In this document: piece after piece, positions 4,914-60,121 of the stretch
Layout: each line of letters begins with the position of its first letter
How positions within the stretch are numbered: position 1 is the stretch's first letter
Virus record (IMG/VR): IMGVR_UViG_3300048999_000173
Span: 19,577-83,576 of that record
Reading direction: 5' to 3' (one strand)
Origin: a virus
Length of the DNA: 64,000 nt
The notes under the pieces: model-generated
What the model was told of the DNA's origin: nothing
The model's input: only the letters and a program-made list of their open reading frames with translations
The model's database searches: none
Translations under genes and position numbers: made by a program

Positions 4914-7079
4914 ATGGCGAGCGACACCGCCCCCGCCGCACCCGGCCCGGACGCCCCCGACATGCCCGCCCACGCCCCCCACCCGGCGACCGGAGCACCG
5001 GACGCCCCGACCCGCGGAGGCCTGGGCTGGCTCGCATCCGCCCTCCAGCCCGTCGACCCCGCCCGCCCCACCTTCGACCTCACCCCCACCCTGGGCGACA
5101 CCACCGCCGACCTGAACGGCATCGACCTCACCGCCCTCACCGGCGGGCCCGGCGGCGGCCCGTCCAGCGCCGCCTACCACGACGGCACCACCCCCCCCAC
5201 CGACACCACCGGCACGAACAGCGCCGGCGGCCAGGAGAAGAGCATCGTCCGCGCCTGGCTCCTCGCCGGCGCCGAACGCTGGCGCAAGGGCGCCGACGCC
5301 CGCAACAAGGCGTTGGACATCCAAAAGGCCAAGGCCACCGCCCTGCAGGTCAAGGAGTCCCGCACCGTCAACCGCTCCGAGAAGATCGTCGGAGGGGGAA
5401 CCAGCTCCGCCACCAGCGGCAAGACCGACGCCGGGAAGTCGAACACCAGCAAGACCAGCAACTCCGGCCCGGGCGGGGCGAAGAACGGCTCCGCCGGCGG
5501 TAAGAGCACAGGGTCCGGCGCTGGCTCGGGGGCCGGTGGCCGCGGTGGAGGATCCGGCACCGGACGAGGAAACGGGGCGGGTACGGGCGGCGGCCGCGGC
5601 GGCACCAGGGGCAGCGACGCCGGCACCAGCAAGGACCCGAAGACCAATCACGCCAAGGGCGCCGACCACACCAAGTCCCCCAGCCCCTCCAACAGCGGCG
5701 GGAAGCCCGGCAAGGACGGCCCGTCCGGCAGCCACGGCTCCTCCGGGAAGCTCGGCAAGGACACCGCCTCCCACAACGGCAGCGGGAAGAGCCCCAAGCA
5801 GCAGACCACCAGCACCTGCGGCGACGCGTCCGGCATCAGCATGACCAAGGACAAGAAGCCCAAGGCGCCCAAGGACACCAGCGGCGACACCACGGCGGCC
5901 GCCCCGAAGACGCCCAAGCCGTCACCCACGAAGAACCCGCCCCAACCGGGAAGCGGCACGCCGGGCCCCAAGGGCGGCCCGGGCGCGGGCGGGGGAGCGG
6001 GCGGCACCACTACACCCGGCGCGGGGACCGGCAAGCCCGTCGACATGAAGAAGAACCCCGACCTCAAGGGCGGCGACAAGACCAAGCCCAGCACCGACAC
6101 CACCGGCCGCACCGACCTCACGAAGAAGCCCAAGACCGACCCCAAGATGCCGAGGGCCGGCGAGCAGCAGACCACCGGGCCGACCGTCCGCACCCAGGCC
6201 ACCCGCGAAGCCGGATACCGCGACGGCACCCGCCTCGGCACCGCCGTCGCCCACGCCGGCGCCTACAAGGACGGGGTCAAGGACGGCTACCGCGACACCT
6301 CCGAGGCTGCCGCCCGCGAGAAGGACCGCCTCGACAAGGCCCACCAGAAGCACAAGCCGGGCGCCGCACCGCAGCCCGCCCCGGCACCCATACCGCCCAA
6401 GCCGACCGTTCCGCCGAAGCCCACCACACCACCCCCCACCCCCACAGCCACCCCCCGCCCGGGCCCCGCAGCAGCGCCCAAGCCGACCAAGCCCACCACC
6501 GTCCCCGACCCGCGTACCGCCCTGATGAAGCCCAAACCCAAGCCGAAGCCTGACCCCAAGGAGGCACCCGTGGCCGCCCCCAGCAGCGCCGACTACCACC
6601 CCCCGCAGCGACCAGCCGACACCCCGATCGGCGTCTCCCGCGTGGGCCAGACCCACGTCGTCCTGGACAGCGGACAGGTCATCTCCCGCGGCGAAGTCCG
6701 CAACCTCAAGGACTACGAACGGCGCTTGGACGAGAAGACCATCGCGATGCACAAACTCGCCGACCTGGCCAAAGCCCTCCAGGCGCACGCCCAGGACCAG
6801 AACAAGGAAGTCACCACCCTCCTCGAGCAGGCCCGCACCAAGTCCGTCGGCGCCACCCTCATCGGAAACCTGACCAGGCTCCAGGAACGCACGGCCCTCC
6901 AAGCCCACCAGGCAACCGAACTCCTCAAGCGGGCCGTTCGGGCAGCCGAGTCCACCACCGTCCTGCTCGCCAACGTGACCACCCGCTACGGCGGCATCTA
7001 CAAGGCCGTCTGCGACTCCCCACTCGAGATCCCCGGCGAACTCGACTTCTACGACGACAGGACGGCCACCAGTGTCTGA
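4914..7079 (+). CDS. large low-complexity Tra-like protein with helical C-terminal domain
   Basis: GGGAGG RBS then MASDTAP; G/K/P/T-rich middle; helical last ~170 aa. Confidence 0.7.
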   Translation: MASDTAPAAPGPDAPDMPAHAPHPATGAPDAPTRGGLGWLASALQPVDPARPTFDLTPTLGDTTADLNGIDLTALTGGPGGGPSSAAYHDGTTPPTDTTGTNSAGGQEKSIVRAWLLAGAERWRKGADARNKALDIQKAKATALQVKESRTVNRSEKIVGGGTSSATSGKTDAGKSNTSKTSNSGPGGAKNGSAGGKSTGSGAGSGAGGRGGGSGTGRGNGAGTGGGRGGTRGSDAGTSKDPKTNHAKGADHTKSPSPSNSGGKPGKDGPSGSHGSSGKLGKDTASHNGSGKSPKQQTTSTCGDASGISMTKDKKPKAPKDTSGDTTAAAPKTPKPSPTKNPPQPGSGTPGPKGGPGAGGGAGGTTTPGAGTGKPVDMKKNPDLKGGDKTKPSTDTTGRTDLTKKPKTDPKMPRAGEQQTTGPTVRTQATREAGYRDGTRLGTAVAHAGAYKDGVKDGYRDTSEAAAREKDRLDKAHQKHKPGAAPQPAPAPIPPKPTVPPKPTTPPPTPTATPRPGPAAAPKPTKPTTVPDPRTALMKPKPKPKPDPKEAPVAAPSSADYHPPQRPADTPIGVSRVGQTHVVLDSGQVISRGEVRNLKDYERRLDEKTIAMHKLADLAKALQAHAQDQNKEVTTLLEQARTKSVGATLIGNLTRLQERTALQAHQATELLKRAVRAAESTTVLLANVTTRYGGIYKAVCDSPLEIPGELDFYDDRTATSV

Positions 7080-45369: not shown

Positions 45370-45490
45370 GTGTTGCCACCACATTACCCATACTCCATTG
45401 CGCAGACAAGGGGTTTGTGCGTACTGTTGTGGCAACACACCGCACGCCACCCCCATGGCGGGCGCAATGAGATAGGGAGGACACTGGGTT
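45370..45490. promoter_or_regulatory. divergent promoter region with operator-like sites
   Basis: IR GTGTTGCCAC/GTGGCAACAC; two ATTGCG-N2-CGCAAT-like sites. Confidence 0.55.
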
Positions 45491-45557
45491 GGTTAACGCC
45501 CCCACGCACCCGCCGAACCGGTCCAACCCCGGCGGGAGCCCGCCGAAAGGACCGCGC

Positions 45558-46142
45558 ATGCCGCGCAGCCGCCGACTGACCCCCGACGTGATCCGTGCCC
45601 GCCTGACCGTGGCCGCCGACCGCCTGCGTGACGGCGGTGACAAGGACCTCGCCGAGGCCGTCGACGCTGTCCTCGCCCCCCGCGGCTGGGAGCTGCTGAA
45701 GAAGCCGGCCTCCCGTGCGAACACCGAGCCGAACATGGCCCTGTTCATGAACAAGGCCATCAAGACCGTCCTGGAGGCGAAGGCGCGTGCGGAGGCCGCC
45801 GAGGAGGCGGAGCGTACGGGCGGGAAGCCGAAGGCCGCTGCGACCGTGCTCGCGGCGGTCGTGAACCAGGGCTTCGAGGCGTTCCTCGCCGGGGAGTTCG
45901 TGCCGGCGAAGCCGGTGCGGTCCGTGCGGGGGACGTCGGTGGAGAAGTCCAACCTGAACATCGGCCCGTCCAAGGCCCTCCGCGACAAGGTGGAGAAGCT
46001 GTGCCCGGCCCTGTCCGCGGAGCTGGACTGGGAGGTGACGCCGGGCCGGGTCGCGATGGCGTGGCTGTACTCGGAGTACGGCATCACGGATGACGACCAG
46101 CGTGGTGTGACCGTGCCGGTCGTCGACGACCTGGCGGAGTAG
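45558..46142 (+). CDS. hypothetical protein, possible RHH-type regulator
   Basis: GAAAGGA RBS; two beta-helix-helix-like segments (NMALFMNKAIK, NLNIGPSKALR). Confidence 0.65.
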   Translation: MPRSRRLTPDVIRARLTVAADRLRDGGDKDLAEAVDAVLAPRGWELLKKPASRANTEPNMALFMNKAIKTVLEAKARAEAAEEAERTGGKPKAAATVLAAVVNQGFEAFLAGEFVPAKPVRSVRGTSVEKSNLNIGPSKALRDKVEKLCPALSAELDWEVTPGRVAMAWLYSEYGITDDDQRGVTVPVVDDLAE

Positions 46143-46233
46143 CCGCCCGGGCGCCGGGTGTGGTCTGGACGCCGACAACCAGACCGCACCCGGCCCCCCA
46201 CCCGTACGACGTAACAACCTCACAGGAGACCTC

Positions 46234-51200: not shown

Positions 51201-51414
51201 CCAGTTTCGGCGGGAGATTCCTCGACCGCCTGGCCGCTTCCCCGTTCGGTGCGCCAACACCGTCCGGGCCTCTGCGGCCCTCATGCAACGGCTCAGCCTG
51301 CCAGCTGAGCTAAGGCCCGCTGGGCGCCAACCCAAGCGAGCGACCTACAGGTTCGCCAGAACCACCTTCACCACCGAGCGGGCTTTTTCATGTCCGCAGG
51401 ACGGCAGGTACATA

Positions 51415-52815
51415 GTGCAGTACGCGACACCCTCTTGTCAGCTTGACGCATCCGATTCGCGGCATTCGGTAGGCAAATCACCCTCCACCGATGTCGATGT
51501 ATCGACTCCCAGCACCCTCCGGATCGCCGCCGCACGGCAGTGGCTGCACGCCACCACGGGCCGGATCGCGACCTGCGCCCACTCCTGGATGACCGCCGTC
51601 CACTGGATCACCACCTCCGGCCTCTACACCCCCTCCCGCGCCCACGGCCCGAAGTGGGGCACCACCACCATCGCGGTCGCGCAGGAGATCGCCGCCCTCA
51701 AGGAGTGCCGACCCGGAATCGCCTACCTCGCCCGCAAGTTGCGGCTGTCCGAGCGGACGGTGCAGTACCACCTGGACATGCTCCGCGAGGCCGGGCTCCT
51801 CGTGTACCGGTCCAAGGGCACCCGCCTCTCCGGTGTCGGCGGCCGGGCGTCCGTGTACGAGCGGACCATCCCCAGCCGGTTCGACGAGGAGCTCGGGATC
51901 CGCACCGTCGGGGAGGGTGCAACGCGCCGCCCGGTCGGGATCGCCGAACGCGGACGGAAGTTGATCGGGAAGCTGGCGAAGAAGGCCGCCCGGAAGACCC
52001 GCCGCCGCCCGTCCCGCACCCGGGCCTCGCAGCGGGGGCGTTGCACCCCAATGCAGGTGGGTACCTCAACTGTTTCCTCTACCGCTCTCACCTGCTTTCC
52101 CTCTGAGAGCAAGCTCGCAAGCGGGGCAGCAGAAGCCAGCCCGGGGAAGAAGACCAAGCGCGGGCCGCGAACCCTCAACCGTGTCGGCCGCCGACACCAG
52201 CTGGCCCGCGAACTGATCACGCTGGTGCCGTGGTTGAAGGGCGCCTCCGTCCCCCGCATCGCGTGGATCATCCGGCATGTCGCTGACGCCGGGTGGACAG
52301 CCCTCGAGGTGCAGGCCATCGCGGAGAACGAGCGCCCCATCGGCGCCGACCAGGTCCACCGGCCGTCCGGGCTTCTCGCCAACCGCCTCGGCAGCCTCCA
52401 CTTGCTGTACACCACCCCCGAACGCCGGAAGACGGCCGTGCTGGCGTGGCAGGAGTCCCGCATCCAGGAGAAGGCCCGGCACGCCGACACTGCGGGCTAC
52501 AGCAGCTTCGACGGCGGCCCCAAGAGCCTTGCAGCCCGGCGGGCCATGGGCGAAGCCTTCGCCGCGATCACCAACCGTCTCCACGGCGACGCCGTACTCG
52601 TCGACTGCACCCCGATCGCGTTTGAGGACCTGAGCCGTGACGAAGTCGCCGCCATGCGCCGCGACGCCATGCAGGACCCGGGCCTGGTCCTCGCCGCTAT
52701 CGACCTCATTGGCGAGCAGCAGACCCGCCGCCTGTACACCCACCGCCTCGTCGACCAGACCCTCACCCTCGAGCGGATCGCCGCCCGCAACACCACCTAC
52801 GACCCCGCCTTCTGA
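51415..52815 (+). CDS. replication initiator-like protein with N-terminal winged HTH
   Basis: CRPGIAYLARKLRLSERTVQYHLDMLREAGLL, ASVY; start uncertain; near DciA-like and par genes. Confidence 0.65.
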   Translation: MQYATPSCQLDASDSRHSVGKSPSTDVDVSTPSTLRIAAARQWLHATTGRIATCAHSWMTAVHWITTSGLYTPSRAHGPKWGTTTIAVAQEIAALKECRPGIAYLARKLRLSERTVQYHLDMLREAGLLVYRSKGTRLSGVGGRASVYERTIPSRFDEELGIRTVGEGATRRPVGIAERGRKLIGKLAKKAARKTRRRPSRTRASQRGRCTPMQVGTSTVSSTALTCFPSESKLASGAAEASPGKKTKRGPRTLNRVGRRHQLARELITLVPWLKGASVPRIAWIIRHVADAGWTALEVQAIAENERPIGADQVHRPSGLLANRLGSLHLLYTTPERRKTAVLAWQESRIQEKARHADTAGYSSFDGGPKSLAARRAMGEAFAAITNRLHGDAVLVDCTPIAFEDLSRDEVAAMRRDAMQDPGLVLAAIDLIGEQQTRRLYTHRLVDQTLTLERIAARNTTYDPAF

Positions 52816-52829
52816 CAGGAGATCCGCTG

Positions 52830-53282
52830 ATGACCAACCCGACCGAACCTCACTCCTGCACGAACTGCGACGGCATCGATCCAGACACCTGCCTGACGAA
52901 CCCCAACAGGCCGCCGGAGCAGTGCCCCCGATCCGAAGCAGACGGATACGGCCACCAGTGCCAGAAGCCAGCCGGGCACAACCTGTGCACCTTCGAGGAA
53001 GAGCAGCGCGCCGCCCAAGAACCGCCTGCCGTCACCCATGCGCGAGCCGTACAGGAGATCCGCGCCGCCGCCCACCACCTCTACGCCGACGCAGGCATTC
53101 GTGTCCTGTCCGCCCTCGATGACGCACAGGTCTGCGACGACCCACACCCCGAAAACGGCGACCTGTGCAACCGCCGCCACGGGCACTTCGGGTTCCACCG
53201 CCACGTCATGGCTAACGGCGTCTACACATCGTGGGTTGGCAACGTCCCCGGTTTTCCGGGTGAGGAGGACGGACGTGGCTGA
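52830..53282 (+). CDS. Cys/His-rich hypothetical protein
   Basis: CTNCDGIDPDTC, HQCQKPAGH, CNRRHGHFGFH. Confidence 0.7.
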   Translation: MTNPTEPHSCTNCDGIDPDTCLTNPNRPPEQCPRSEADGYGHQCQKPAGHNLCTFEEEQRAAQEPPAVTHARAVQEIRAAAHHLYADAGIRVLSALDDAQVCDDPHPENGDLCNRRHGHFGFHRHVMANGVYTSWVGNVPGFPGEEDGRG

Positions 53283-54066
53283 CACCCCGCAGCTGTCCGG
53301 CCGCGACCTCGCCCGGCAAGCCCTCGCCGCCTACAAGGCCACCGCCCGCACCGCCCCCACCAACACCCCGGCCAAGACCCGACGGAAGAAAACCCTGCGC
53401 GCTGGCTCCGGCCGGGACCCCATCACCTTCGGCGCCGCCATCGCCGGACTCACCGGAGACCTCCCCCTCGAAGCCGGACTCGCCGGCGGCGACATCATCA
53501 ACCAGTGGCCCACCCTCTGCCCGCAGTACGCCGGCCGCGTGCAGCCCGTCTCCTACGACGAACGCACCGGGCGCCTCGACCTGCGGCCCGGATCCCACTC
53601 CTACGCCGGGCAACTCCGCCTCCTGGGCGGCCAGCTCGCCAAGCAGATCAACGACAAGCTGGGCCGCCCCGTCGTCCGTACGATCCGTGTCCTTCCCGTC
53701 GGCAACATCGCCCCGGCCGGGCCCGCAGAGCCCATAGCCCAGCAGCCGCAGCCTGAGACGCCCGTACGAACCCGCGCGGACGGATGCCCCGGCTACCAAG
53801 ACGCACTGGCCGTCGTCCTCGAGCACCAGCCCGAACGAAAGGCCGTAGACCCGTACGTGGAGCACGCCATGCGCCGCCAGGAGGCCGCCCTCCGCGCCGG
53901 ACGGCCGCCCGAGACCGAGCACCGCGACGCCATCTGGGCCCAGGACGACGCCGAACGGAAAGCGGGCCCGGCGCCGGGCAGCATGGCCGCATCCGAAGCC
54001 GCCGCCCGCGCGGTCGCCCGCCAGAACCGCGCCGCCCGGGCCCCGCGCCGCGCCTTCGATGTGTGA
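53275..54066 (+). CDS. DciA (DUF721)-family helicase-loader-like protein
   Basis: SGRDLARQAL, GRDP, IINQWP...VQPVSY..GRLDL...SYAGQLRLL...LAKQINDKLG..VVRTIRV. Confidence 0.75.
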   Translation: MADTPQLSGRDLARQALAAYKATARTAPTNTPAKTRRKKTLRAGSGRDPITFGAAIAGLTGDLPLEAGLAGGDIINQWPTLCPQYAGRVQPVSYDERTGRLDLRPGSHSYAGQLRLLGGQLAKQINDKLGRPVVRTIRVLPVGNIAPAGPAEPIAQQPQPETPVRTRADGCPGYQDALAVVLEHQPERKAVDPYVEHAMRRQEAALRAGRPPETEHRDAIWAQDDAERKAGPAPGSMAASEAAARAVARQNRAARAPRRAFDV

Positions 54067-55166: not shown

Positions 55167-56045
55167 TTACCCCAGGCCGCCTGCCAGCTCCTCGATCAGC
55201 TCACGCACAGCGCTCTCCAGCTGCTCAGCCTCCCGTCGCGCCCGGGCTGGATCCCGCTCCGCCAGCTCACGGATCCGCGCGACCGCCCGCAGTGACTCAC
55301 TGACCGACACTGCCGTCTTTCGTGTCGGCTTTGCCTCGGACGGCCCGGACACCTCCTTTGGAGGGGCGTAACCGAGGAAGTTCGCCGCCTGCATCAGCGC
55401 CGTGTCCGTGACGTTGCCGTGCCGGGCCGCTTCCAGCCACGTCTCACGGACCGGGTCCACGCCGTGGGTGTCGAGTATCGGGACCAGGACCCGCAGGGGA
55501 CGTTCCTTCAGCTCCTGGGTGGTGATGTCCTCGAGGACCTGAGCGACCGGAGTCACCCGGATGATGTTGTTCGCCTGGTGCTTTTTGATGCCGAACCGGG
55601 CTTCGGCGAGATCCCCGAACGTGTCGTGCCCTGCGACCTTGTGGAGTTCCTCTTCCTTCATCGCCCGCAGCCGCAGACCCAGGCCGATCAGCCTCTGCTG
55701 GTCGGCACGTTCGTGGTTGGCGCGGGCCGCGTACTGAACGGCGAGAATGCCGCGGGAGTAGAACTCCAGCCGCTCGGACGGATCTGCACTGTCCGGCTCG
55801 GTGAATTCCGGCATCGGCAGGTAGCCGGCCGCCGCGCGCGCAGGCGCCACGGGCGCATCGTCGGCCGCCCGTTCAGCCTGCACCGGGAGCGGCGCTGCCA
55901 CCGGCTGAACGGGGGGTGCCGATGCAGCGGCCTGCTGCTCTCGCCGGGCGCGCTCCGCCTCTTCCCACTTCCGCAGTTCGTCCTCGCGGGATGTGTCCCC
56001 GCCCTGGCCGACCACCGGGATGACGGGTGGTTCCTTCCTGCTCAC
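55167..56045 (-). CDS. partition partner protein (non-canonical ParB)
   Basis: Coupled to parA; GLRLRAMKEEELHKVAGHDTFGDLAEARFGIKKHQANNII. Confidence 0.7.
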   Translation of the reverse strand: MSRKEPPVIPVVGQGGDTSREDELRKWEEAERARREQQAAASAPPVQPVAAPLPVQAERAADDAPVAPARAAAGYLPMPEFTEPDSADPSERLEFYSRGILAVQYAARANHERADQQRLIGLGLRLRAMKEEELHKVAGHDTFGDLAEARFGIKKHQANNIIRVTPVAQVLEDITTQELKERPLRVLVPILDTHGVDPVRETWLEAARHGNVTDTALMQAANFLGYAPPKEVSGPSEAKPTRKTAVSVSESLRAVARIRELAERDPARARREAEQLESAVRELIEELAGGLG

Positions 56046-57199
56046 GCCGCCAGCTCCTTCGCCAGGGACCGCATCACCTGCGCCTGACCAGAGTCAGGAG
56101 CGTGCTCAAGGAGAGGGATCTGGTAGTCGGACGACTCCCGCCCCTCCACCGCGTCCTTCAGCGTGGCCAGCACGCCCGGAGTAGTGAGACCGTTCCAGCC
56201 GTCGTAGAAGCTGCGGGTACCGACACCCTTGCGCGCGTCGTAGGCGTTGACGACGAACCCGAGCTGGTCGACCACCGCTCCGGTCAGCCGGGAGTGCGTA
56301 CCGATCTGCTCGTTCAGCATCTCGTACGCGTCGAACGAGGACCGGTCGGACCAGACAGGGATGAGGATCCCGGAGTGGTCGATCAGCTCGCCGGGACGGC
56401 GCTGCACGTAGTTGATGGCGAGGTCTATGGCCAGACCCAGGTTCGGCGGCCCGTCCAGGACGATGACGTCGTAGCCCTCCTCGAGCGGGGCGATCGCACG
56501 CGCCAGGCAGGTGTCCCGGCCGACCTGGAGCAGGGCAAGCTTGGCGTCCATGAGGAAGGCGTCCTTGGACGCGGGCAGGATGTGCAGGCGGCCCCCGAAC
56601 CGTTCCTGGGGGAGCGCAACCAGGGAGCGGGCCAGGTGCTTGTCCGCCTCACCCAGCATGTGCTCGAGGAGACTGTTGGCGCCCTTGGGCAGGCCTGGGA
56701 TCTGGAGGCGGCTGGTGAGGTGGCCCTGCGGGTCGTAGTCGACGAGGAGGACACGCTGGCCGGCTTCCGCCATCGCCTGGGCGAGCCCGGCCGCGACGAA
56801 CGTCTTGCCGACGCCGCCCTTCTGATTGCCCACCAGGATCCGCTTCACCGGCTGCGACACCAGCCGCTGGGAGGGCGAGGGGTGCAACTGCAGCCAGTGG
56901 ACGATGGCCTGCGCCATGCCCTGCACCTTGGTGATCCCGCGGAGTTCGCAGTCCTGCGTGAACCGTCCGGGCAGCCCGGGGGCGAGGAACACCCCCCACG
57001 ACTTCGAACCCCTGGTGTCGATTGCCTCGAAGACCGTGTCGCCGGTGTCGGTCTCGAGCCACAGGGCAACTGCGTTGGATGCGGCGTCCTGCATGTTCAG
57101 TCCGTGCTCGGCAGCCCGGATGCGGAGGTCTCTGCGTAGCTCCGGGGTCAGATTGACGAGCAGTTTTTCGCGCGCATCGTCGGCGCTCGGGTTGGTCAT
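56042..57199 (-). CDS. parA: ParA ATPase with N-terminal tandem RHH-like extension
   Basis: NQKGGVGKT, LLVDYDPQG, VIVLDGPPNLG. Confidence 0.9.
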   Translation of the reverse strand: MTNPSADDAREKLLVNLTPELRRDLRIRAAEHGLNMQDAASNAVALWLETDTGDTVFEAIDTRGSKSWGVFLAPGLPGRFTQDCELRGITKVQGMAQAIVHWLQLHPSPSQRLVSQPVKRILVGNQKGGVGKTFVAAGLAQAMAEAGQRVLLVDYDPQGHLTSRLQIPGLPKGANSLLEHMLGEADKHLARSLVALPQERFGGRLHILPASKDAFLMDAKLALLQVGRDTCLARAIAPLEEGYDVIVLDGPPNLGLAIDLAINYVQRRPGELIDHSGILIPVWSDRSSFDAYEMLNEQIGTHSRLTGAVVDQLGFVVNAYDARKGVGTRSFYDGWNGLTTPGVLATLKDAVEGRESSDYQIPLLEHAPDSGQAQVMRSLAKELAA

Positions 57200-57404
57200 A
57201 GCGAGCAAATTACCAGGCGATCTCCGTGGAGAGGGGAAGGCGGGCACCGAACTGCTCACGGCTCCGCCCCAAAGCGGCTGAACACCCCTTGTGAACTGCG
57301 GGTTTAGACCTGTGGCACCGCATGGTCAACTTCTGCCGGTAACGGGCGGGTTGCCGGGGTTTCTGCGTCACCCACCCGAGTGATCTATCACCGCATCCCC
57401 TTCC

Positions 57405-57760
57405 GCACCCCACCTGTCTGTGGGTTGGCTGAGAGTCGCCGCCTCCCCCTGGGGAACGGCGGCCGTACGGCCGGGACCGGCGCGTGCGTGGATCGCAGCC
57501 CATCACGGGCCCTCCCGGCCCACGCGCCACCGCCCGAATCCGCACAGGGGACTCCCCCGTGGTGAGTTCCCGGACTACAATCACCGTCATCTGGCGGGCA
57601 TGCCCGTGAGGTCTCGAGGAGCCCCTTCCGGCCCCGGGGCGGCGTGTTGTCGGCAAGCTCCGCGCCCCTCTGGTCGTCCGGTGAGGGGCTGCCTTCATTC
57701 CGGGCCCCGGCACACCATCCGGAACGCGTGCAACTTCCTGGCCTGATACTCACGGGGTTC
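57405..57760 (-). ncRNA. candidate structured RNA with two pseudoknots
   Basis: Multiple 6-8 bp stems, two interleaved (ABAB) stem sets, one G-U pair favouring the minus strand; no credible ORF. Confidence 0.45.
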
Positions 57761-57862
57761 TTACGGATAGCGTGTACTTCGGCCACAACCAGTGACGCTT
57801 TGGCCATATGCATATCGAATGCGCGTCAGTAGGGCGTGAATACATGGCCTTGCCTTACCCAC

Positions 57863-57880
57863 TGACACTCAGGAGTGTCA
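57863..57880. promoter_or_regulatory. palindrome, operator candidate
   Basis: TGACACTC-AG-GAGTGTCA. Confidence 0.5.
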
Positions 57881-58008
57881 CAGTGGCTTTCCCGCACCCA
57901 CGGACTGGCAGCCGGAGGGCGCGGGGGGAGACCCAGGACCGGCCCCAACCGCCCCCGGGTCATACGAGGCCCCTTCCCACTTTCTGCCGGAGGAGCGGAG
58001 ACGCCCCT

Positions 58009-58386
58009 ATGTCCGCAGAGCCTGCCCACCCCGGGCCCGACGACCGGCCACCCGGGACGGTCATCCTGTTTCGCAACCCGGCGACCCATCCCCCACGCCG
58101 GACAGGCCGCAGGGGGATCCCGAACGTGTCCGCACAGCCCGGCCCCGGCCCCGCGCCGGAGATGACACCGCAGCAGCGGATGGCCGTCGCCCTGGAGAAG
58201 CGGTTCGTCGGCCAGGGACAGTCCCTGACCGACTCCGAGACCGCGCAGGCGTTCCTCTGCACCCTCAGAGAGGTCCGGACGATGCTGCACGGCGCGCTCG
58301 CCGAGGGACGGCTGGGCGAAGGTGAACACCAGACGCTGGACGCGATGGTCGAGGGGATGATGGCGGCCCCGGACCTGCTGGCCTGA
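58009..58386 (+). CDS. hypothetical protein
   Basis: GGAG RBS; helical C-terminal half. Confidence 0.6.
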   Translation: MSAEPAHPGPDDRPPGTVILFRNPATHPPRRTGRRGIPNVSAQPGPGPAPEMTPQQRMAVALEKRFVGQGQSLTDSETAQAFLCTLREVRTMLHGALAEGRLGEGEHQTLDAMVEGMMAAPDLLA

Positions 58387-58651
58387 ACTCCCCTGGTAGA
58401 ACGTGTTCCTGAACAACGGTCAAGTTGTCTGAATATGCCGGGGAATTAGACATCTTCACATACGTGTCGAAACGGTAACAGTGCCCACAGAGCGCTGATC
58501 GTTTGCCACAGTCCGTTCAACAACCGCCCCCTGCGTGGCACGATGGGGCGTCCGGAGACACCCGGAGCAACAACTTCCGGCCACCGGCGCGCGCCCCACC
58601 CTGCACCAACGGACCCCCCGCGCCCCGGCCGGTGAGGGGACGGGGACACGA

Positions 58652-59609: not shown

Positions 59610-59645
59610 AGCCCCGCCGCCCAGACCCGCGGACGGGGCTTTCTC
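59610..59645 (+). terminator. intrinsic terminator
   Basis: AGCCCCGCCGC...GCGGACGGGGCT followed by TTCT. Confidence 0.6.
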
Positions 59646-59764
59646 ATGCCCATCCGTAGCATCTATTGCGGACGCAATGGGATAGGGGTTACTGTGGTTA
59701 CGCCGACAACGACAGAAGCCACACCAGGCCTGTCGGAGTAACCAATTCGCACCCGGAGCCACCC

Positions 59765-60121
59765 ATGGCCGTGATGACGCACGCCCAGACGCTGCCGACC
59801 ACCGCGCACTACGACGCCCTCACCCGCCGACAGCAGGACGACTTCGACCGCGTCATGGAAGCCGCCGACACCGAGGCCACCAACGCACACGAGTACCTGG
59901 CCATGATGGCCGTCATCAGCGTGTACGCCGGAATCGATCTCCCCGCGTCCAAGGACATCGCCCGCTGCGACTGCTACCTCAACGGCTGCGGATGCGACCT
60001 CATCTTCGACTCCAACCTCCCCGGCGCCGTCATCACTTCGGGCCCGGGCCCGAAGTGCAACCTCAGCAGCATCCAGTGCCCCGACTGCGGCCACGACCGC
60101 CCCCGGCCCGTCACGGACTGA
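59765..60121 (+). CDS. Cys-rich hypothetical protein
   Basis: CDCYLNGCGC...CPDCG. Confidence 0.7.
   Translation: MAVMTHAQTLPTTAHYDALTRRQQDDFDRVMEAADTEATNAHEYLAMMAVISVYAGIDLPASKDIARCDCYLNGCGCDLIFDSNLPGAVITSGPGPKCNLSSIQCPDCGHDRPRPVTD

Follow-up and report, generated by a model that had tools for sequence, protein, structure and literature searches.

What does the gap between parA and its neighbor encode in IMG/VR virus record IMGVR_UViG_3300048999_000173? The window analyzed was a 64-kilobase (kb) stretch of DNA, bases 19577 to 83576 of the 83.6-kb record, and coordinates throughout are positions in this window. The record was estimated to be 92% complete, and the G+C content was 69%. The gap is non-coding and measures about 810 nucleotides (nt). 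It adjoins parA on one side and a gene here called gene X on the other. The initial annotation had placed in it a minus-strand RNA candidate with two pseudoknots. We find a conserved, covarying RNA element there that reads best on the plus strand. It is fairly probable that the gap contains the gene for an RNA of about 115 nt that would act in trans, as an antisense RNA against the 5' ends of early transcripts.

We take the window to be a pZL12/pCQ3-like Streptomyces phage-plasmid; what is said here of pZL12 itself is general background. A blastn search against plasmid records matched 22 Streptomyces plasmids of about 85 to 270 kb, including pCQ3 of strain W9. The plasmids among the matches listed were 85 to 102 kb in size, with one exception. 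A block of about 100 nt (window ~57564 to 57670) was common to the 22 plasmids, and its conservation was far above that of the surrounding DNA. The blastn search of the stretch against phage records gave no match. One report describes pSLE1 as syntenic with pZL12 (PMC4487206). Third-position GC periodicity ends at the parA start, is absent from 57200 to ~58000, and is back near 58010. The region from 57405 to 57760 is therefore non-coding.

A conserved structured RNA element

The RNA family was collected by two pattern scans and a covariance model, R1. The model gave 36 strong matches among 45 sources, with E values from 4e-14 to 5e-32. The matches came from plasmids, IMG/VR records, and ten soil metagenome contigs. 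Among 151 sampled Streptomyces genomes, R1 had a strong match in three and a weak match in one. Another eight metagenome loci, which fit the DNA pattern alone, were rejected as chance (R1 E of 0.3 to 4.9 for six, with two unmatched). The window contains the element on the plus strand at 57583 to 57712 (66.9 bits, E of 1.9e-16).

The initial annotation had recognized no Rfam family, and this was borne out by a scan of the whole window, which gave no match at gathering thresholds. With Rfam 15 at E values up to 10, the region 57150 to 58050 matched only four irrelevant eukaryotic families, the best at 0.099. The RNA was not described in the literature found by full-text search; the primary pZL12 paper lay outside that search.

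Helix covariation exceeded its controls. In a MAFFT alignment that was not fitted to the structure, 86.6% of cells paired, compared with 36 to 56% for slid partners, and the covariation score was attained by 0 of 500 shuffles. In the alignment fitted to the covariance model, 93.7% of cells paired, compared with 34 to 54%, and 0 of 500 shuffles attained any measure. There, 19 of the 26 pairs change on both sides. The minimum free energy (MFE) fold of 57586 to 57704 reproduces the three helices P1, P2, and P3, with a z score of only -1.56.

The predicted RNA of about 115 nt would run on the plus strand from about 57587 to 57589 to about 57701. Ahead of it is a candidate -10 box, TACAAT (57576 to 57581, plus strand), which may be the promoter of the small RNA. 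Its distance to P1 is fixed, with no insertion or deletion in 36 of 36 loci. The box is always of the form TAnnnT (TACAAT in 32 loci, TAGACT in 3, and TATCCT in 1).

P1 is the 5' hairpin (57589 to 57612, plus strand). It reads AUCU-G-GCGGG, loop CAUG, CCCGU-G-AGGU, and its 9 base pairs (bp) are nearly invariant. The sole varying pair is R-U, found as A-U in 20, G-U in 13, and G-C in 2; read on the minus strand, it would give an A.C mismatch. Locus L028 has a 13-nt insertion inside the P1 loop with the stem intact. The core of P1 holds a palindrome of 12 to 14 bp.

P2 is formed by a 5' arm, AGCCCCUUCCGG (57620 to 57631, plus strand), and a 3' arm, CCGGUGAGGGGCU (57678 to 57690, plus strand). 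Across the family it is a GC-rich stem of 8 to 13 bp, and 10 of its 11 pairs change on both sides (36 distinct rows). P3 lies inside P2 (57641 to 57666, plus strand). It consists of the 6-bp stem GGCGUG/CGCGCC and the loop UUGUCGGCAAGCUC (57647 to 57660). Five of the six pairs change on both sides, and the loop is 13 to 15 nt long across the family. The apical loop contains the invariant sequence UUGUCGGCAA, whose core was unchanged in 20 of 20 aligned sequences. The invariant GUUGUCGGCAA corresponds to window positions 57646 to 57656, and the invariant bases displayed in the loop are UUGUCGGC.

P2 is followed by a pyrimidine- and U-rich 3' tail, GCCUUCAUUCC (57691 to 57701, plus strand). The tail is terminator-like, and its motif UUCCUCAU is the predicted 3' end of the RNA. 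The consensus tail of the family is UUCCUCAUGCCC, and that of L034 is UUUUUUAC. The same tail is found in two weak R1 matches elsewhere in relatives. It also follows a plain hairpin after gene 3 (59611 to 59651), so stem plus tail looks like the usual terminator of the element. The terminator-like sites of the family share the tail UU(U/C)CUCAUGCCC after a GC-rich stem (59611 to 59651 and 57678 to 57701).

The G-U pairs of the family favor the plus strand. There are 89 G-U cells on that strand, 33 of them from one invariant pair, compared with 13 C.A cells (G-U if read on the opposite strand). The plus strand is also favored by the R-U pair of P1, the loop insertion in L028, the side on which TAnnnT lies, and the shared terminator tail. 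The transcribed strand is probably the plus strand. A small minus-strand open reading frame starting from the conserved CATG was considered and rejected. Relative to the invariant core, the window and L004 have it in different frames, insertions and deletions are not multiples of three, and there are invariant runs of 29 nt without third-position wobble.

Complementarity to the predicted 5' ends of early transcripts

Downstream of the RNA, its strand was scanned for exact complements of the P3 5' arm and loop. Most plasmids with enough downstream sequence have a same-strand complementary site at +1780 to +2140. In the window this is site A, GCCGACAAC (59702 to 59710, plus strand), which is complementary to the P3 loop and is the predicted 5' end of the gene 4 transcript. 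Site A begins 6 nt past a -10-like TACTGT (59690 to 59695), behind the palindrome ATTGCGGACGCAAT (59665 to 59678). We predict GCCGACAAC to be the first bases of the transcript because it is outside genes, follows a TAnnnT box at 6 nt, and has a palindrome ahead of it.

The arrangement of palindromic operator, TAnnnT, 6 nt, and GCCGACAAC makes up an early-promoter cassette (window 59665 to 59701). Homologues are present in pCQ3 (L080) at 2170 to 2212 and 6878 to 6920. The cassette is found once or twice per complete plasmid: at +1799 and +6507 in pCQ3, +1827 and +8644 in G154, +1931 and +7740 in G155, and +2035 in the window. The second early promoter of several plasmids lies 6.5 to 8.8 kb downstream of the RNA. 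The first pCQ3 cassette stands at the head of an operon with RusA, WhiB, a helix-turn-helix (HTH) regulator, and SSB, and the second at the head of the next gene block. The operator has the form ATTGCG-N2-CGCAAT and variants, with GTTGCGCACGCAAC or TATTGCGCTGCGCCATA in relatives compared with ATTGCGGACGCAAT in the window. It varies between plasmids, as would be expected for immunity specificity. The first gene behind site A in the window is gene 4 (59765 to 60121, plus strand). It encodes a Cys-rich protein of 118 amino acids (aa) of no known family, with only a subthreshold match to DUF6422 (E of 0.016).

At least one site near a predicted transcription start was found in 19 of the 23 sources searched (18 distinct). 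Perfect complementarity extends over 17 nt in L013, 16 nt in G154 and L031, 14 nt in pCQ3, L017, and L033, and 12 nt in L014 and L009. The flanks of the RNA and its target co-vary as UCG/CGA, UUG/CAA, and GUG/CAC, and L013 has an extra U/A on the other side. RNAs paired with their own targets had a mean complementarity of 11.33 nt, compared with 10.02 nt for cross pairs, and the sum was attained by 11 of 20,000 permutations. The first 8 to 10 nt of three predicted transcripts were unpaired in MFE folds, and the 5' end at site A was mostly unpaired. In the chromosomes of five host genomes, no exact 11-mer complementary to the loop was found at any shared place.

A second kind of candidate target is a hairpin after the stop of gene 45489 to 46142. 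The hairpin (46153 to 46194, plus strand) has a perfect 16-bp stem and a 10-nt loop, ACGCCGACAA (46169 to 46178). Its z score is -5.89, with 0 of 200 shuffles as good. The loop is complementary to the P3 loop and may kiss it. The gene adjoins a WYL-domain gene on the opposite strand, and the hairpin is about 11 kb upstream of the RNA. A post-stop hairpin with the loop motif GCCGACAA is present at the corresponding place in four of the five complete plasmids and elsewhere in pCQ3.

In the mechanism that we propose, the RNA would have its own promoter (-10 box TACAAT), with transcription leading away from parA, and would end at a GC-rich stem followed by a pyrimidine- and U-rich tail. P1 would form its 5' hairpin, and P2 around P3 would form a long hairpin with interruptions, with UUGUCGGC shown in the apical loop. 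The P3 loop would first contact the 5'-terminal tag of early transcripts, and pairing would then spread into the P3 5' arm. Loop and arm together would pair with GCCGACAAC(NNN), the first 9 to 17 nt of the predicted early transcripts. The first operator-controlled early promoter, about 1.8 to 2.1 kb downstream, would head gene 4. The RNA would act in trans as an antisense regulator of early (lytic-type) operons. A wider reading is more tentative. All repressor-controlled early transcripts may carry a common 5' tag, GCCGACAAC..., that is read by the apical loop of one constitutive RNA, and this RNA may also kiss the terminator loop of the regulator-region mRNA. We hold this wider reading to be possible rather than probable.

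Several points weigh against regulation by such an RNA. The window copy is the second weakest of the 36 strong R1 matches. Its pairing with site A covers only 9 nt plus one G-U and is among the weakest of the family. The window copy has no canonical -35 box or U-run terminator, and a scan of 57150 to 58100 on both strands for consensus promoters and terminators found nothing. The promoter, ends, and transcribed strand of the RNA are predictions from sequence, as are its transcription, its pairing in vivo, and the sign of regulation. The pairing figure of 93.7% comes from an alignment fitted to the model, and the shuffle and permutation figures overstate independence because the sequences are related. 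No site near a predicted start was found in L016, L020, and L046, where 2.4 to 2.7 kb downstream was searched, or in L006, which has too little downstream sequence. The site in W02 has a 1-nt deletion, and those in G155 and L002 pair over 8 nt before a mismatch. Because GCC-GAC-AAC are preferred codons, coding DNA often contains the 9-mer. In energy-ranked duplex scans of five whole plasmids, generic GC-rich codon matches dominated, and the sites were not singled out. The antisense-strand control reached 10 nt of complementarity in two plasmids.

Gene X and the leader alternative

Gene X (58012 to 58386, plus strand) is the conserved downstream neighbor of the RNA. It encodes a protein of 124 aa that has no Pfam or PHROG family match. 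A ribosome-binding site (RBS), GGAGCGGAG, lies ahead of its start. In tblastn searches of the 36 loci, a gene X homologue was found downstream of the RNA and on the same strand in 27 (E of 1e-5 or lower). The other nine loci had no gene X match at this threshold, some of them with little flanking sequence. The sequence CAUGCCC recurs: P1 has it in its loop and 3' arm, and gene X has it at its start codon (CCAUGCCC).

The order of genes allows the RNA to be read as a cis-acting 5' leader. The promoter at 57576 would then drive the gene X operon, and P1 to P3 would be an attenuator or a put/nut-like antitermination signal. The element is upstream of gene X and co-oriented with it. It is promoter proximal and ends in a terminator-like stem, and several leaders have a second terminator-like hairpin with an A-run, a stem, and a U-run. 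A near-invariant P1 and loop beside proteins that are 35 to 45% identical would also fit contact with the host RNA polymerase. However, a separate candidate promoter precedes gene X: TTACCC, 18 nt, TGT-CACAGT (57855 to 57884, plus strand). Its spacing is fixed, and it is strongly conserved in 25 aligned leaders. It may be the promoter of gene X itself. It lies between the RNA tail and the start codon, and we therefore take the RNA as a separate transcription unit. A leader would also leave unexplained the co-varying complementarity to distant transcript starts. We consider the leader unlikely.

The gene X leader itself (57960 to 58011) is conserved in nucleotides, with GGACUGGCAGCC, CCCUUCCC, and CUGCCGGAGGAGCGGAGACGCCCC-AUG, and the protein is only 35 to 45% identical between plasmids despite this. 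CUUCC in the leader could pair with GGAGG of the gene X RBS and form a hairpin for translational control. Pairing of the loop, tail, or P1 of the RNA with the gene X leader amounted to 5 to 7 bp by eye only and was dropped.

A DNA site as an alternative

The conserved motif could also act as DNA. GTTGTCGGC and GCCGACAAC would then bind a plasmid regulator at the early promoters and at the RNA locus, and the hairpins would be incidental or formed by DNA. The motif is fixed at +1 to +9 relative to the -10 box and lies beside a palindromic operator. The P1 core is palindromic over its 12 to 14 bp, and transcription of the RNA is predicted rather than observed. Against this, the covariation of P2 and P3 includes many G-U pairs on one strand. 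The motif is displayed in an apical loop in two unrelated contexts, P3 and the hairpin at 46153 to 46194. The flanks of the two copies are complementary and co-varying, not identical. The P1 loop takes an insertion of 13 nt, which an operator of fixed spacing would not. A DNA site is improbable on these grounds.

The par genes, blocks M2 and M3, and replication

parA (56042 to 57199, minus strand) has a match to Pfam AAA_31/CbiA. It is divergent from the RNA in the window, unlike in most relatives. The same divergent arrangement is found in L002 and L013, and the three share an atypical par cassette. This cassette (55167 to 57199 in the window) is inverted relative to the usual parA-parB order. 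It encodes a 385-aa ParA with an N-terminal extension and a 292-aa partner without a Pfam match; most relatives have a ParB/Spo0J-type partner instead. In the remaining loci with detected par genes, parA and/or parB is upstream of the RNA and on the same strand. The RNA promoter of pCQ3 begins a few tens of bases past parB. The RNA has no constant, co-oriented position upstream of parA, as a parA 5' leader would have. It tracks gene X, not parA.

Two conserved non-coding blocks, M2 and M3, lie between the RNA promoter and the par genes in 14 of the 36 loci, including the window. M2 (57455 to 57545) is an imperfect hairpin of about 30 bp with the apical motif GGAUCGCAGCC (TCGCAGC is 57493 to 57499), and the motif is found in the same number of loci. 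It gives long hairpins in single-sequence folds and contains the stem GGCCGGGA/UCCCGGCC. The consensus built from 8 sequences contains 23 pairs, of which 4 show compensatory change, and consensus folds based on MAFFT were partial. G-U counts do not decide the strand of M2. M3 (57340 to 57440, strand likewise undecided) contains the motifs GCCGGGGUUUUU, GUCACCCGACCGAGUGAU, and CCCUUCC and is conserved in the M2 subfamily. It also holds an imperfect 18-bp palindrome, ATCACTCGG/TCGGGTGAC. Both blocks are kept whichever type of par cassette adjoins them, so they are unlikely to be parS. The pCQ3 subgroup keeps the RNA and lacks M2 and M3. One public sequencing run, whose type was guessed, contained two 151-nt contigs of 98 to 99% identity (57335 to 57485 and 57504 to 57654) and nothing else of 57200 to 58400. 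It cannot show transcription, strand, or ends, and we draw nothing from it. If that run were RNA, it would hint at transcripts across M3, M2, and the 5' half of the RNA.

To the left of the par genes (51283 to 54066) the window encodes a 510-aa HTH protein and then a DciA-domain protein (E of 1.6e-7). The HTH protein has weak matches to PHROG replication-initiation (O-like) families, the best at 2.7e-6. A DciA-type helicase loader encoded by the element is unusual for a phage. A tRNA and tmRNA search with ARAGORN found none. A search for iterons found none, with short two-copy repeats only.

These neighbors bear on a role in replication, as a primer or origin RNA beside parABS, like that of non-RepA cluster A mycobacteriophage prophages, or as a ColE1-like RNA I that counters a longer minus-strand preprimer. 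In the window the RNA is directly upstream of parA and in reverse direction, as described for the origin RNA of Alma and LadyBird (PMC7157519), and the adjoining M2 and M3 are conserved non-coding DNA. An RNA-based prophage origin would go with the lack of an encoded initiator. Here an RNA-only origin is not needed because initiator-like HTH and DciA-like proteins are encoded. There are also no iterons, the pCQ3 subgroup keeps the RNA without M2 and M3, the orientation of par varies, and there is no sign of a minus-strand promoter. We regard a replication RNA as very unlikely. Neither it, nor a DNA site, nor a leader explains the co-varying complementarity.

The double pseudoknot

The initial annotation had described an RNA of about 350 nt on the minus strand (57405 to 57760), with two pseudoknots and a role as a parA leader switch. 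It had been right that the gap holds an unannotated structured RNA candidate; the strand, the fold, and the function proposed for it were not upheld. All five stem pairs, with their ten halves, exist letter for letter on the minus strand at the positions given. The closing stem is CCCGTGAG (57756-49) with CTCACGGG (57610-03). Pseudoknot 1 is GGTGTG (57716-11) with CACGCC (57646-41), crossed by CCGGGGC (57710-04) with GCCCCGG (57640-34). Pseudoknot 2 is GGCGCGTG (57528-21) with CACGCGCC (57486-79) and GGCCGGGA (57520-13) with TCCCGGCC (57476-69).

The fold is no better than that of shuffled DNA. The minus strand of 57405 to 57760 folds at -176.9 kcal/mol, compared with -176.2 +/- 5.8 in 100 dinucleotide shuffles (z of -0.11). 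Forty of the 100 shuffles were equally stable. The plus strand of the region gave a z score of -0.50. Of 34 related loci, the window alone (1 of 34) has a perfect partner for the closing stem, and 4 of 34 have a partner with at most one mismatch. A closing stem with one mismatch was attained by 18% of shuffles. For pseudoknot 1 the best pairing run in the window is 7, attained by 111 of 300 shuffles, and pairing in the 34 other distinct rows was at chance level. The crossing stem of pseudoknot 2 has 8 bp in the window, attained by 13 of 300 shuffles. In 13 relatives the crossing runs were 3 to 7 bp, each attained by 49 to 300 of 300 shuffles.

The two pseudoknots had been viewed as a repeated scaffold, and neither is kept in relatives: pairing in pseudoknot 1 is at chance level, and pseudoknot 2 has its crossing stem in the window only. 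The annotation itself had named missing covariation in homologues and equally good pairing in shuffled sequence as grounds for giving up the fold, and both were observed. GC-rich shuffles pair and fold as well as the structure, and the homologues have no covariation for it. The conserved covarying helices P1, P2, and P3 differ from its stems and read best on the plus strand. parA is adjacent and divergent in three loci only (the window, L002, and L013), so the parA leader fails as well. The stem GGCCGGGA/UCCCGGCC does coincide with the conserved long hairpin M2; it is nested there and forms no pseudoknot. The double pseudoknot is chance pairing in GC-rich DNA (70% G+C). Its stems exist, one of them within M2, whose strand is undecided and for which 12 of 14 sequences fold slightly more stably on the G-rich minus strand, but the chance-level fold, the loss of its stems in relatives, the inconstant position of parA, and core G-U pairs that favor the opposite strand leave a minus-strand pseudoknot RNA hardly credible and largely refuted by the comparative data.

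Comparison with known RNAs

By analogy, the closest functional precedent for the proposed antisense RNA is the c4 RNA of P1 and P7. Rfam holds a C4 family, and c4 is processed by RNase P. The c4 RNA is described as blocking antirepressor synthesis by means of complementary sequences carried in its loops, which holds a lytic-type function off, and it underlies heteroimmunity (PMC12197685). Like c4 in the immI region of P1 and P7, the RNA here is a small structured RNA of a plasmid-prophage, and its loop is complementary to operon sites on the same replicon and the same strand. The sites lie at conserved positions and are complementary over 9 to 17 nt. From one relative to another, RNA and target change together, which is the logic of P1/P7 heteroimmunity. 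The two RNAs have no homology in sequence or structure, and Rfam gave no relevant match at E values up to 10. Whereas c4 acts around the RBS of its target within its own transcript, the RNA here has at least two sites at predicted 5' ends, 1.8 to 8.8 kb away and with separate promoters.

FasX of Streptococcus pyogenes is reported to pair over 9 nt with the ska mRNA at its 5' end and to stabilize the message (PMC4691137). It is likewise a short small RNA that pairs at the 5' end of its target, and its geometry matches that of site A. It differs in being a chromosomal virulence regulator that stabilizes its target, and there is no homology. Since FasX pairing at a 5' end stabilizes ska, regulation here could have either sign. 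Our guess is that the RNA most likely serves as a safeguard against leaky early transcripts, silencing them while the element is a plasmid-prophage, as c4 does to ant in P1. Stabilization of mRNA by 5'-end pairing, as for FasX and ska, is equally possible.

ColE1 RNA I and R1 CopA are cis-antisense RNAs that are transcribed opposite their targets and control replication. They resemble the RNA here in size, in having two hairpins that end in a terminator, and in recognition by an apical loop followed by stem invasion. The RNA here differs in being encoded apart from its candidate targets. Mycobacteriophage prophages with non-RepA parABS systems are reported by Wetzel et al. (2020) to use a non-coding origin RNA and to lack an initiator protein (PMC7157519). 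They too are actinobacterial plasmid-prophages with an RNA locus beside parABS, and in the window the RNA also reads away from parA. The window differs in its initiator-like and DciA-like genes, and the position of the RNA relative to par is not conserved; this comparison is by description only.

Implications for Streptomyces phage-plasmids

The RNA is a new family, absent from Rfam, that would work like a known kind of regulator. If early transcripts do carry a common 5' tag that the RNA reads, immunity would have a layer made of RNA, its specificity co-evolving within each plasmid. This layer could then define which plasmids are heteroimmune or incompatible. The RNA would be the first such regulator to be described in phage-plasmids of actinobacteria, and a small-RNA regulon defined by transcript 5' ends would be unusual. 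The RNA is a possible source of orthogonal RNA-target pairs and promoters for Streptomyces engineering. Phage-plasmids of the pZL12/pCQ3 type are common in Streptomyces, and the RNA offers a hypothesis for their switch between the plasmid and lytic states that can be tested by mutation.

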